Translations under genes and position numbers: made by a program | Notes under the pieces: model-generated | Seen by the model: only the letters and a program-made list of their open reading frames with translations | What the model was told of the DNA's origin: nothing | Database searches by the model: none | Part shown: in pieces, positions 3,914 through 17,865 of the stretch | Position numbering within the stretch: the stretch's first letter is position 1 | Layout of the letters: every line of letters begins with the position of its first letter | NCBI RefSeq assembly: GCF_000719515.1 | Contig: NZ_JOGR01000001.1 | Coordinates: 16,773 to 40,772, forward strand | Length of the DNA: 24,000 nucleotides | From: Glycomyces sp. NRRL B-16210 | GTDB lineage: Bacteria > Actinomycetota > Actinomycetes > Mycobacteriales > Micromonosporaceae | Direction: 5' to 3'

Positions 3914-4261
3914 GTGTTCGGATTCGTCCAGGTGGAGAGCCAAGCCATTCGCAATGCGTCGCAGCAGATGCAGCAGTACGCCTCCCAGGCCGGGAGCCTC
4001 CCCGACAGCGCGGTGCAGGCCGCCGAACGCGCCGAGAGCGCCAACCGCGGCTTCATGTGCGCCGACGGCGCCAAGGACTTCGCCGACGACCTCAAGACCG
4101 ATATGCAAGAGCTCCAAGAACATCTGGACGACACCGCCGAGCTGTTGCAGGACATAGCCGACGACTGGGACGAGGCCGACGAGCACGGCGCGAGCGTGTT
4201 CAAGCCCATCGAGTCCGACCTCAGCGGATTCCGCGTCCCCACGATCCAAGGCGGGGTGTGA
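3914..4261 (+). CDS. Small helical protein S1 (~115 aa). EspC/PE-like partner of the downstream WXG protein; paralogous to 9494-9808 and 17539-17865(-).
   Basis: The ORF track gives 3899-4261. GTG 3914 sits 8 nt after GGAGG (3901-3905) and gives an N-terminus (MFGFVQVESQAIRNA) that aligns with MTWIDVDAEKLREA of S3. The C-terminal acidic motif IADDWDEADEHG resembles CADDMEAADEA (S2) and CADEHEGNDAA (S3). Confidence 0.7.
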   Translation: MFGFVQVESQAIRNASQQMQQYASQAGSLPDSAVQAAERAESANRGFMCADGAKDFADDLKTDMQELQEHLDDTAELLQDIADDWDEADEHGASVFKPIESDLSGFRVPTIQGGV

Positions 4262-4265
4262 CACC

Positions 4266-4796
4266 GTGCCCACCTTCCAGCAGTGCCTCGACGCCAACCC
4301 GACCGAGCTCATGACCCTCGGCGCCTCCATCGGATCGGCCGCCGCGCAGCTCACCCAGCTCGGCGCCTCCTACGGCACGACCGTCGCCGGCCTCGCCGCC
4401 TCCTGGCAGGGCGAGGACTACCAAGGACTCGTCCGATGGTCCGGCCAGGTCGCCGCCTTCATCGGCCGCAGCGACGCCGCGATGATCACCTGCGCCGGCG
4501 GACTCGGGACCACCGGCGCCGCCTTGATGGCCACCTGCACCGCCATGAAGGCCACCAAGCAGGCCGCCGAAGGCATCGGCTACAAGGTCCTGCCGACGCC
4601 GTTCGTGATCCTCGGCCCCAGCCAGTGGTCCCAGGTCTCCGCGGCCGGACCCGGCGCGCCCGCGGTCCTCGCCGCCTACCAGGCCGGAGCGGTCGCCTTC
4701 ACCACCGCCCTGGTCAGCATGTACACCGCGATCATCGCCCAGGACACGGCCGGGTACGCCGTCATCCGCACCGCCCTCGCCCTCAGCCCCTCCTGA
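4266..4796 (+). CDS. WXG-motif protein W1 (176 aa). Short member of the WXG100-like (T7SS-signal-type) family; candidate carrier or partner for the downstream toxins.
   Basis: GTG start 4 nt after the S1 stop. Contains ...LAASWQGEDYQGL... (W-x-G-x-D), preceded by the NPTELMTLGASIGSAAAQL helix that parallels NPGDLMKAAGAWMTLA in W2. Ala/Thr/Gly-rich hydrophobic C-terminal half. Confidence 0.7.
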   Translation: MPTFQQCLDANPTELMTLGASIGSAAAQLTQLGASYGTTVAGLAASWQGEDYQGLVRWSGQVAAFIGRSDAAMITCAGGLGTTGAALMATCTAMKATKQAAEGIGYKVLPTPFVILGPSQWSQVSAAGPGAPAVLAAYQAGAVAFTTALVSMYTAIIAQDTAGYAVIRTALALSPS

Positions 4797-4812
4797 CGGC
4801 CGGAGACGAGCG

Positions 4813-5388
4813 ATGCCGACGACCAACCACGGCGCCCTGCCACGAAGCGGCGAGCGCAGGCCGCAGAGCGCCAACCCGACCTCCGTCGCGGGCGCGTCCG
4901 ACTTCCGGCGCACCATCGGCAACCGCGTCCCCTACGGGCAGTCGCGCCTGGGGCAGCACGTCGCCGACATGCGCACGGTGCAGCCGACGAAGCCGCCGTC
5001 GATCGCGCCCACGGTGAAGAAGAACCTCGCCGCCGCCGAACTCAGCGACGGCACGATCATCGACGGCACCAGCGGCGGCGCACTGGGGTGCTCGGAGAAC
5101 GAGATCCAGTCGAAACTCGACGCGCTCAACCAGAGCCGGGCCCCAAGCGACCAGTTGACGATCAAGGAGCTCTACACCGAGCGTCAGCCGTGCTGCAAAT
5201 GCGAGAACCTCATGAAGACCAAGCATCCCGACGCGAAGGTCGACTGGTCCGTGGAATTCTTCGACACTCCGGACGCGCAGTCCCTCTCGCCCGAGCAGCT
5301 GACGGTCATGCGCTCGCTCAACAAGTTCGAACTCGGTGAACTCAAGCGGGTGAGCTATGCCTACCATGGGGTCCCGTTGCCGGGTTAG
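4813..5388 (+). CDS. Polymorphic-toxin-type nucleic-acid/nucleotide deaminase (CDA fold), with CxE in place of HxE (191 aa).
   Basis: GGAGA lies 6 nt upstream of ATG 4813. GCSENE and YTERQPCCKCE motifs are about 30 residues apart, matching zinc-site spacing. Clear paralogy to the 5808 ORF: AAAELSDGTIIDGTSGG vs AAAALGDGSVVTGRSRG, YTERQPCC, EFFDTP. Confidence 0.7.
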   Translation: MPTTNHGALPRSGERRPQSANPTSVAGASDFRRTIGNRVPYGQSRLGQHVADMRTVQPTKPPSIAPTVKKNLAAAELSDGTIIDGTSGGALGCSENEIQSKLDALNQSRAPSDQLTIKELYTERQPCCKCENLMKTKHPDAKVDWSVEFFDTPDAQSLSPEQLTVMRSLNKFELGELKRVSYAYHGVPLPG

Positions 5389-5430
5389 CACGCCCGGACG
5401 GGCACCCGACCGCGTGAGGAGGAACCGGCG

Positions 5431-16384: not shown

Positions 16385-16391
16385 GCGACAC

Positions 16392-16456
16392 GACGGGAGC
16401 GGCATCGAATCCTCGATGCCGCTCCCGTCATTTCTCGGGCCGGAAAGAACCGGCCC
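16392..16456. terminator. Two hairpins between convergent genes; likely a bidirectional terminator.
   Basis: Perfect 17-bp stem GACGGGAGCGGCATCGA (16392-16408), loop atcc, TCGATGCCGCTCCCGTC (16413-16429), followed by atttctc. Second stem GGGCCGG (16437-16443), loop aaagaa, CCGGCCC (16450-16456). Confidence 0.75.
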
Positions 16457-16459
16457 CGG

Positions 16460-17539
16460 CTATCTGGTCGCCTGCTCCACCACGCCCGCACCCGCGACGA
16501 TCATCGTCTTGTTCTTCTTGAGGAACTCCAGCACCGGCTTGATCTTCTCCAGGATCTCCCAGATCTTGGCGAGCACCCGCGCGGCCTTGCCGAAGATGTC
16601 CGTGGCCTGGCGGATCCGGTTGAACGCCTTCATCAGCATCGATGCCACCTTGTACACGGCGTCGGCGATCGCGGTGGCCACCGTCGCGCCGAAGGTCGCG
16701 ATGCCCGCGGCGACCTGCGGCAGCAACCGGGTCAGCGCCCACGACACGCCCTTGGCGAGCAGGTCCACGATGTCCTGGCGCAAGGCCTTGGCGACCTCCG
16801 CCATGCAGGTCAGCAGGGCCTCCATGCCGACCGCCATGTACCCGAGCCCGTCGATCACCTGAGCGGCCTCGGTGACCCTCGTGCGCGCCGCGTCCCCGTC
16901 CGCGCCCTGCCAGTCGGCCAGGCCCGCGTCGCCGACTGCGATGACGTACTCCGACACCTGCGGCGCGCCCTTGGCGACGGTGTCCCACATGCTCGCCGAG
17001 GTCTTCATGCGGCTCTCGTTGCCCGAGACGATGCCGACGAGGTCCTCAAGCGGCTGGAACACCTGGATGAGGAAGTCGATCAGGCTGCCCGCCAGCCATT
17101 CGACGGGGTTGAACTTCGGGTCGGTGATGTTCTCGACGAAGCTCCAGAACTCCTCCGCCGCCCCCTGCACGCTGGTGATGTCCCCGGCCAGGCCGGTCAC
17201 CAGGTTCGCGTACCCGTCCCAGTCGGTGAGGCTGTCGATCTTCCCGATGTTGATCGCGGTGTTCTGCACCAGGATCGCCGGGGAGGCGACGCTCTTGAAC
17301 AGGTTCATGCCGTTGGTCGGGCCGTTCTTCGTCCCGTCCGGGTTGTCGGGGTTGCGGTACCCGTCGACCGCCTGATGGTAGAGCCCGCCCGAGTTGTTCC
17401 CCGAGTTCGACGACGGGGCGCCCTGGCCGGTCACGGCCCGCCACGCGTCCATCCCGCTGGCGCCGACGTCGCCGTCCAGCAGGGTCGGCTTCTGCTGCGG
17501 TGCGCTCTCGTCCCACGTGGGCTCTTGGACGTCCGTCAT
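16460..17539 (-). CDS. WXG-motif protein W3 (359 aa) with a hydrophobic/amphipathic helical C-terminal half.
   Basis: ORF track. Contains GNESRMKTSASMWDTVAKGAPQVSEYVIAVGDAGLADWQGADGDAARTRV. The start ATG overlaps the stop of the upstream S3 gene (TGATG at 17541-17537). Confidence 0.75.
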   Translation of the reverse strand: MTDVQEPTWDESAPQQKPTLLDGDVGASGMDAWRAVTGQGAPSSNSGNNSGGLYHQAVDGYRNPDNPDGTKNGPTNGMNLFKSVASPAILVQNTAINIGKIDSLTDWDGYANLVTGLAGDITSVQGAAEEFWSFVENITDPKFNPVEWLAGSLIDFLIQVFQPLEDLVGIVSGNESRMKTSASMWDTVAKGAPQVSEYVIAVGDAGLADWQGADGDAARTRVTEAAQVIDGLGYMAVGMEALLTCMAEVAKALRQDIVDLLAKGVSWALTRLLPQVAAGIATFGATVATAIADAVYKVASMLMKAFNRIRQATDIFGKAARVLAKIWEILEKIKPVLEFLKKNKTMIVAGAGVVEQATR

Positions 17540-17865
17540 CAGTTCCCCTCCTGCCCGATCTCGGCGGCGATCTTCTCCAGCTCGGCGGCGATCGCCGCGT
17601 CATTGCCCTCGTGCTCGTCCGCGCATTCGGTGATCCGGTTGGCCAGACCCGAGACGGCCTCGACCGACTCCGCCATCGAGGAGTGGAAGACGTCCGCGAG
17701 CGCGAAGTACGCCGGGGCCATCACCAGGCCGGCCACGCCCCACATCCACCATTCGGGGTCGGCCTCCTGCGCGTAGTCGGCGAGGGCCTGGATCTCACCC
17801 TCGGACTGGTGCAGTGTGGTAGCCGCTTCGCGCAGCTTCTCGGCGTCGACGTCTATCCACGTCAT
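17539..17865 (-). CDS. Small helical protein S3 (108 aa), EspC/PE-like partner.
   Basis: The track ORF 17539-18027 is trimmed to ATG 17865-17863, which is preceded by GGAGGG. The N-terminus MTWIDVDAEKLREAATTL matches the l-x-V-d-x-e-x-L-r-x-aA pattern of ESX-secretion-associated small proteins. Confidence 0.7.
   Translation of the reverse strand: MTWIDVDAEKLREAATTLHQSEGEIQALADYAQEADPEWWMWGVAGLVMAPAYFALADVFHSSMAESVEAVSGLANRITECADEHEGNDAAIAAELEKIAAEIGQEGN

Follow-up and report, generated by a model that had tools for sequence, protein, structure and literature searches.

Paired EspC-like and WXG/PPE-like genes in a probable type VII (ESX) substrate island of Glycomyces sp. NRRL B-16210

We examined a 24,000-nucleotide (nt) stretch of DNA, hereafter the window, from Glycomyces sp. 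NRRL B-16210 (contig NZ_JOGR01000001.1, here C1; the window is C1:16773-40772), whose genome comprises 4.96 Mb with about 70% GC. The window carries three pairs of adjacent genes, each encoding a small helical protein (S1, S2, and S3) and a larger protein with a W-x-G motif (W1, W2, and W3). We put at about 72% the probability that the window belongs to a type VII (ESX) substrate island whose S/W genes encode paired substrates of three functional classes. The pairs are a further case of the known PE/PPE and EspA/EspC logic. An earlier note on this DNA had proposed such a logic, and its interpretation is supported by the Pfam PF10824 scores of the S proteins, the PPE and WXG100_2 domains of W orthologues, the match of a W1 model to PPE15, the presence of an ESX core locus, and natural W-S fusions. 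S1/W1 likely belongs to a polymorphic toxin system, and the W families likely have different jobs. The finding is confirmatory and not surprising, because it fits existing annotation and concepts. Paired type VII substrates have been worked out almost wholly in mycobacteria (EsxA/B, PE/PPE, EspA/C, and EspE/F), and type VII toxins in Firmicutes (LXG proteins with Lap partners).

Genes were mapped by the GC content of third codon positions (GC3), because the high GC content yields many spurious frames. All six S and W genes are open frames, each in the frame with a GC3 of 0.87 to 0.97.

3914-4261, plus strand: S1, EspC-like small helical protein of 115 amino acids (aa), with W-x-x-x-D at residues 85-89; PF10824 38.3 bits
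4266-4796, plus strand: W1, free-standing WXG-type candidate carrier domain of 176 aa, with WxG at residues 47-49 and a possible PPE-like fold in an AlphaFold2 (AF2) model
9494-9808, plus strand: S2, EspC-like small helical protein of 104 aa, with M-x-x-x-D at residues 86-90; PF10824 20.0 bits
9812-10774, plus strand: W2, PPE/WXG100-like protein of 320 aa, with WxG at residues 90-92 and a hydrophobic segment at residues 109-153
17539-16460, minus strand: W3, WXG100_2/CpnT-N-terminal-like protein of 359 aa, with WxG at residues 210-212 and a disordered-looking N terminus
17865-17539, minus strand: S3, EspC-like small helical protein of 108 aa, with H-x-x-x-D at residues 85-89; PF10824 25.7 bits

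The coordinates proposed earlier for the three pairs were borne out by these open frames, by their high GC3, and by a GGAGG-like Shine-Dalgarno (SD) site ahead of every start of the six genes. The GTG start of S1 at 3914 has GGAGG 8 nt upstream and was therefore well chosen in the earlier note. The junctions are also as tight as had been described (gaps of 3 to 4 nt or an overlap of 1 nt), reading as 4 nt, 3 nt, and -1 nt. S1 ends with TGA, followed by a 4-nt gap and the GTG start of W1. S2 ends with TAG, a single CGG codon precedes the ATG of W2, and both genes are in one frame. At S3/W3, the stop TGA and the start ATG overlap by one base in TGATG. The gene at 8745-9497 overlaps the S2 start by ATGA, and at least three genes are therefore coupled at S2/W2. 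Close homologues of the window proteins come almost all from Glycomyces species.

The S proteins were compared with PF10824 (T7SS_ESX_EspC, DUF2580), for which the curated cut-off is 23.5 bits. S1 (38.3 bits, model positions 1-97 of 100) and S3 (25.7 bits, positions 5-99) scored above this cut-off, and S2 (20.0 bits, positions 9-99) fell just below it. S orthologues were gathered from Glycomyces genomes, each family was aligned, and the profiles were compared with hhalign. The S3 family matched the S1 family with a probability of 97.8% (E value of 1e-12, 101 columns) and the S2 family with 91.8% (E value of 7e-7, 93 columns), and the S1 and S2 families matched each other with 61.6% (E value of 8e-5). 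Because these profile-profile matches link all three families, S1, S2, and S3 are, as far as sequence comparison goes, one EspC-like superfamily. Their lengths (115, 104, and 108 aa, respectively) fit a helix-turn-helix protein of about 100 residues, and the S2 part of a single-chain S2-W2 model described below has helices at residues 7-42 and 48-90, with a predicted local distance difference test score (pLDDT) of 62 to 75. The S3 profile also gave weak full-length alignments to chains of EsxA, EsxB, and ESAT-6 (E values of 0.1 to 0.6).

An N-terminal motif had been described for all S proteins; it is present in S1 (VESQAIRNA) and S3 (VDAEKLREA) but loose in S2 (FDAEFVRGL). The C-terminal motif described with it was found in all three proteins (IADDWDEADE, CADDMEAADE, and CADEHEGNDA for S1, S2, and S3). 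This motif takes the form H/Y, W/Y, or M/Y followed by x-x-x-D, with the Asp invariant across the three family alignments. Four residues ahead of the Asp, the S3 family has H (13 sequences) or Y (8 sequences), the S1 family W (16) or Y (1), and the S2 family M (13) or Y (4). The type VII export signal is YxxxD/E on the partner without WxG, and the aromatic/M-x-x-x-D of the S family may be read as a degenerate motif of this type.

The W-x-G-x-D element attributed to the W proteins was found in all three (WQGED in W1, WNGDD in W2, and WQGAD in W3), and the W and G are invariant in the alignments of all three W families. The N-P-x-x-L-M...W helix motif that was said to be shared is complete in W2 alone; W1 is without the final W and W3 without the P. 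The Pfam cut-offs are 27.3 bits for WXG100 (PF06013), 27 bits for WXG100_2 (PF25547), and 26 bits for PPE (PF00823). The WXG100-superfamily scores of the window copies were 14.2 bits for W1, 19.5 bits for W2, and 11.7 bits for W3, under the cut-offs, and W2 scored 22.9 bits against PPE as compared to 19.5 bits against WXG100.

For W1 and W3, it is relatives that link the proteins to the WXG100 superfamily. W2 orthologues are annotated as "PPE domain-containing" and scored 18 to 28 bits against PF00823, with matches covering only model positions 19-93 of 165, and 21 to 24 bits against WXG100. The Pro-Pro-Glu tripeptide was not found near the N terminus of W1, W2, or W3. Most W3 orthologues carry PF25547 (WXG100_2), and in UniRef this domain bears the name of the CpnT channel N-terminal domain. 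W1 matched no Pfam family. When the W1 profile was run against 1.84 billion representative proteins, only 65 relatives were found, most of them 300 to 470 aa long with the W1 domain at residues 1-170, and 17 of the 44 longer relatives matched WXG100 (best E value of 1e-9). Membership of the W proteins in the EspA/EspE family was ruled out, as PF18879 had no match at an E value of 0.1 or lower genome-wide and none at 1 or lower in W1, W2, or W3. Several W2 orthologues carry C-terminal extensions of 60 to 160 aa with no recognisable Pfam domain.

Direct pairwise BLAST found essentially no similarity among S1, S2, and S3 or among W1, W2, and W3. With shallow W profiles, hhalign gave probabilities below 2% and weak alignments that were in register at the WxG hairpin. 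A deeper W1 profile matched the W2 family with 89.6% (E value of 2e-6, 147 columns) and the W3 family weakly, with 14.5% (E value of 0.002). By these profile comparisons, W1, W2, and W3 are three distinct families sharing a WXG hairpin, not copies of one family. The idea that the window holds three copies of one pair, as recognisable paralogues, was rejected; BLAST was essentially blank, and the links appear only with profiles (among the S proteins and between W1 and W2). The multi-copy family proposed in the earlier note fits the S proteins, which form one superfamily, but not the W proteins.

Structural models place the WxG motif at a turn. The AF2 model of W1 (pLDDT of 90.9; predicted template modelling score [pTM] of 0.74) has W47-x-G49 in a loop at residues 46-49 between helices at residues 13-45 and 50-103, and in the S2-W2 model W90-x-G92 of W2 lies at a loop end, ahead of a 64-residue helix. 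The top Protein Data Bank (PDB) match of the W1 model was PPE15 in the PE8-PPE15-EspG5 complex (5xfs_B; E value of 0.017, template modelling [TM] score of 0.50, 172 columns), and its hairpin matched EsxA at a TM score of about 0.8. The W2 part of the S2-W2 model matched PPE4 (6uuj_E; TMt of 0.62, root mean square deviation of 4.8). A sequence search of the PDB with the W3 profile gave nothing useful.

Hydrophobic helices had been ascribed to the W proteins in general. On the Kyte-Doolittle scale (19-residue windows), residues 109-153 of W2 reach a maximum of 2.28, which is membrane grade, but W1 is marginal (1.69) and W3 stays below 1.5. It is conceivable, if rather doubtful, that W2 and possibly W3 are themselves effectors that insert into membranes or form pores, comparable to TspA/EsxX-type depolarising toxins or to EsxE/EsxF and PPE channels, with S masking the hydrophobic helices until export. 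The W2 segment lies within the 64-residue helix of the model, the W2 and W3 families are kept genus-wide and are not polymorphic, and the CpnT-derived name of W3 orthologues points the same way. However, neither W2 nor W3 has an evident immunity-like gene beside it, the hydropathy of W3 nowhere attains membrane grade, and no homology to known pore-formers was found.

The resemblance among the pairs exceeds chance, as the S profiles match one another and the pairing of S with W is conserved beyond this genome. In 30 of 31 Glycomyces loci, the W2 orthologue is preceded by an S2 orthologue at a distance of -1 to 17 nt. Behind the S3-like gene, at -8 to +13 nt, comes a W-like gene of 300 to 409 aa in all 30 loci examined, 29 of them with WxG, and the one-base overlap of the S3/W3 type also occurs in Natronoglycomyces. 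For S1-like genes, 22 of 24 loci have a W1-type gene next, and in nearly all of these the WxG falls at residue 47. Across the family as defined by the Genome Taxonomy Database (one genome per genus), the best EspC-like gene has a coupled downstream gene in 25 of 30 genera, mostly W3-like.

Natural fusions join the two partners in one chain. A gene 5 kb past the window (C1:45671-46918, minus strand) encodes a W3-like N-terminal part, to which W3 is 29% identical (E value of 2e-19), and a C-terminal EspC-like domain (17 bits). A second gene, within the ESX locus (C1:601635-602975, minus strand), has the same layout, with 25.4 bits for its EspC-like domain. Frames of fusion length are numerous across the genus and occur in most Glycomyces genomes. 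These W3-like/EspC-like fusions support a physical partnership between S and W, and the motifs complement each other, W bearing WxG and S the YxxxD-like motif.

The fusions also bear on the fate of S. It is unlikely that S is a cytoplasmic targeting factor or chaperone, similar to Lap1/Lap2 or EspD/EspH, that holds W export-competent while only W is exported. Such a role would suit a small helical protein strictly adjacent to W whose export motif is without the canonical Tyr, and small helical partners target LXG toxins in Firmicutes (PMC9600955, PMC10801868). However, the Pfam family was founded on EspC, and EspC is secreted along with EspA (bioRxiv 10.1101/2024.07.05.602283); in the W-S fusions the S domain would be taken out along with W. 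This alternative differs from the paired-substrate reading only in the fate of S.

Because S2 and W2 share a frame, they could be modelled by reading through the S2 stop (TAG as Gln) in a single AF2 job with paired and unpaired orthologue rows; this was a modelling device only, and no biological read-through is claimed. The best PDB matches of the model were EspB, a fused PE-PPE protein, and PPE4. The resemblance of S2 plus W2 as one chain to EspB/PPE4 is only suggestive, and S and W would, by our reading, form a heterodimer.

The genome has one ESX core locus, which looks complete, with EccB, EccD, and EccC at C1:589-597 kb and mycosin-like genes; a canonical EsxA/EsxB pair lies at C1:608332-608916. 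Genome-wide there are 9 matches to PF10824, 7 to WXG100_2, and 14 to YbaB. One of the 14 YbaB matches is the housekeeping gene, and the other 13 adjoin S/W loci, with YbaB, S, and W as the recurring gene order. S/W/YbaB modules occur at no fewer than 8 other places in the genome, including within the ESX locus. The YbaB genes of the window are as follows.

7983-8684 and 8745-9497, plus strand: YbaB/EspL-like genes at the head of the S2/W2 module, PF02575 30.7 bits and 16 bits (weak); the module is conserved in Glycomyces
About 19781-20149 and 20146-20532, plus strand: tandem YbaB genes, PF02575 39.8 and 39.6 bits

A mycobacterial YbaB-type protein, EspL, stabilises EspE, EspF, and EspH (PMC6319747). 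EspA and EspC interact directly, EspE and EspF form a PE-PPE-like dimer, and the pairs have been modelled as PE-PPE-like (bioRxiv 10.1101/2024.07.05.602283). We propose that S is an EspC-like helix-turn-helix protein that would take the PE/EspC role, with its degenerate YxxxD-type motif at the end of helix 2, and that W, bearing the WxG turn, would take the PPE/EspA role. Translational coupling would yield S and W in 1:1 amounts, and the two could then assemble as a helical bundle in which WxG and YxxxD come to lie next to each other. The YbaB/EspL-like proteins encoded nearby may stabilise S/W as chaperones, and export would run through the one ESX machine of the genome, whose genes lie about 550 kb away. 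S1/W1 would serve as the handle by which a polymorphic toxin system delivers its toxins, W1 being free-standing and followed by separate toxin/immunity cassettes. S2/W2 would be a genus-wide core pair, in which the hydrophobic segment of W2, of hairpin length, could insert into a membrane, and S3/W3 would be a CpnT-N-terminal-like pair.

The genes downstream of W1 bear directly on the role proposed for S1/W1.

4813-5388, plus strand: deaminase toxin encoded as a separate gene, XOO_2897-like (PF14440 29.4 bits), with a Pro/Arg/Ser-rich N-terminal handle of about 60 aa
5431-5811, plus strand: putative immunity protein for the first deaminase, by position; resembles the C-terminal half of the 5808-6602 product (blastp E value of 4e-4) and matches no Pfam family
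5808-6602, plus strand: second XOO_2897-like deaminase (PF14440 34.3 bits), fused to a domain resembling the 5431-5811 protein
6826-7847, plus strand: third cassette, with a putative toxin of 244 aa and a putative immunity gene for a 91-aa protein (7572-7847); GC3 supports both frames

The first deaminase gene has its own SD-like site and ATG and begins 16 nt past the W1 stop; the second is its paralogue (E value of 9e-18). The third cassette had no Pfam match even at an E value of 0.5. A RelA/SpoT-like reading of 6826-7560, which was based on motifs seen by eye only, was not confirmed by Pfam at that threshold. We ruled out that W1 and the deaminase are a frameshifted fusion, as W1 proteins of 173 to 176 aa are dominant in many genomes, the toxin gene occupies a different frame and brings its own SD site and ATG, and the separate layout recurs with different toxins.

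Relatives of the W1 domain end in GH-E, EndoU, and NS_2 nucleases, YwqJ and other deaminases, and ADP-ribosyltransferases (ART). The features of polymorphic toxins are found here, namely an N-terminal W1 domain, variable toxin C termini, and small downstream genes, but the toxin in the window is encoded apart from W1. Where the W1 orthologue of a relative is 53 to 86% identical to the W1 of the window, a gene for a YwqJ deaminase, an EndoU nuclease, or a TNT-type protein lies 1 to 36 nt downstream. One W1-orthologue locus has no cassettes, and a YbaB gene is directly next. A WHH/colicin-DNase protein is encoded after a W paralogue on contig 14, and an ART-like protein after another on contig 4. 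The window deaminase shares 17 of its first 30 residues with the YwqJ-type toxin of another species and only about 21% identity elsewhere, and these two unrelated deaminase families sit downstream of W1 orthologues that are 85% identical. A shared handle with a divergent toxin is, to judge from these alignments, the polymorphic-toxin pattern, but carried by a polypeptide other than the one with the WXG domain.

Zhang et al. (2012, PMC3482391) defined WXG N-terminal domains as the modules that traffic polymorphic toxins through type VII systems, and a recent study in Schaalia noted small helical partner genes beside Esx substrates of actinobacteria (bioRxiv 10.64898/2026.09.08.750141). We tentatively suggest, as a possibility well short of even odds, that the toxins are split, with S1 and free-standing W1 as a reusable carrier onto which unfused cargo (deaminase, TNT-like NADase, EndoU, or WHH/colicin-DNase) docks non-covalently via the Pro/Arg/Ser-rich handle. 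Such a carrier role for S1/W1 would make split carrier/cargo toxins the type VII counterpart of the "cargo effector" mode of type VI secretion.

Several observations weigh against a type VII substrate island. W1, W2, and W3 of the window are below every Pfam cut-off, and all Foldseek structural matches of the W1 and S2-W2 models have E values above 0.001 (weak, 0.017 to 0.3). The S2-W2 model is only moderate (pLDDT of 70.4, pTM of 0.63), and the canonical Tyr of YxxxD is in none of the window S proteins, which have W, M, or H instead. The island lies about 550 kb from the ESX core and is flanked by conjugation-type ATPases (AAA_10 and FtsK-like).

L034:15280-16704, window 2-1753, and L033:8021-10465, minus strand: conjugation-type flank genes (AAA_10, M23 peptidase, and FtsK/TraG-like)

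An AAA_10 (VirB4-like) ATPase and an M23 peptidase are encoded just upstream and an FtsK/TraG-like ATPase about 10 kb downstream, and this arrangement is syntenic in Glycomyces sp. L485. Together with the sub-threshold W matches, these flanks would fit genes that are not substrates at all but encode helical envelope or conjugation proteins of a chromosomal element bounded by the two ATPases, the likeness to EspC and WXG proteins being generic coiled-coil composition. We consider this highly improbable. Two of the S proteins are above the curated cut-off with full-length alignments, WxG falls exactly in the predicted turn, and W1 relatives match WXG100 down to the E value given above and carry classic polymorphic toxin domains. 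The modules also recur elsewhere in the genome, including at the ESX locus, and the region is syntenic across Glycomyces and not mobile.

As paired type VII substrates, the S/W genes can be compared to three known systems. Pairwise co-dependent secretion is the established logic of EspA/EspC-type pairs. As in EspA/EspC and EspE/EspF of mycobacteria, the small partner belongs to PF10824 and is encoded adjacent to, and probably co-expressed with, a larger helical protein, with YbaB-type genes alongside. In contrast, the large partners in Glycomyces are not EspA/EspE, as PF18879 is absent from the genome, and S precedes W, whereas espA precedes espC in mycobacteria, an order also seen in the natural fusions of this genome. 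The host is moreover a non-mycolate soil actinomycete, and one of its pairs is tied to antibacterial-type toxin cassettes.

Similarity to PE/PPE pairs (PE8-PPE15, PE25-PPE41, and PE5-PPE4) and EspB lies in the W1 and W2 models, which match PPE chains best, and in the WxG on the large and YxxxD-like motif on the small partner of what would be a helical-bundle heterodimer. However, the Glycomyces pairs are without a Pro-Pro-Glu or Pro-Glu N-terminal signature and without a PE Pfam match, their PPE scores are at or below the cut-off, and no EspG gene turned up in the window, for which no model search was made. With WXG/LXG polymorphic toxins (Zhang et al. 2012; Lap1/Lap2-LXG; EsxE/EsxF-CpnT) they share a W1 domain N-terminal to toxin domains in relatives, immunity-like genes downstream, an adjacent small helical partner, and the resemblance of W3 to the CpnT N-terminal domain. 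Unlike in those systems, the window toxin is an unfused, separate polypeptide with a conserved N-terminal handle, and the small partner is EspC-like, not DUF3130/DUF3958 or a canonical Esx protein.

The same pairing grammar (EspC-like, WXG/PPE-like, and YbaB) is present in a non-mycolate soil actinomycete, recurs about 10 times in this genome, and is tied to antibacterial-type toxin cassettes. These genes are testable candidates for toxin recognition by ESX outside mycobacteria, for the DUF2580/EspC family as a general PE-like half of substrate pairs, and for unfused toxins riding on a WXG carrier.

The remaining genes of the window include two modules with larger WXG-containing proteins and a protein next to the tandem YbaB genes.

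10881-12443, plus strand: large WXG-containing protein of 520 aa, WXG100 24.1 bits (27.3 bits in the genome search), kept after W2 in 28 loci
12459-12797, plus strand: small helical protein of 112 aa, partnering the 520-aa protein as a further substrate-like pair
12994-13299, plus strand: weak YbaB match, rearranged second module
13550-13876, plus strand: paralogue of the 112-aa protein, about 110 aa (E value of 2.7e-16), rearranged second module
13968-14684, plus strand: lipoprotein, rearranged second module
14681-16384, plus strand: WXG-containing paralogue of the 520-aa protein, 567 aa (E value of 3.6e-31), rearranged second module
20602-21492, plus strand: protein of 296 aa with a weakly S1-like N terminus (blastp E value of 0.002)

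The 520-aa and 567-aa WXG proteins each have a helical partner of about 110 aa, which brings the number of substrate-like pairs in the island above three. The region with the tandem YbaB genes and the 296-aa protein (19781-21492) is syntenic in Glycomyces sp. L485. Directly upstream of S1, 2922-3797 encodes a protein with three transmembrane segments and a Pro-rich C-terminal region, and homologous stretches are found in 24 W2-orthologue loci. Divergent from S3, 17895-18875 encodes a Bax-inhibitor-1-like membrane protein (PF12811, 70 bits).

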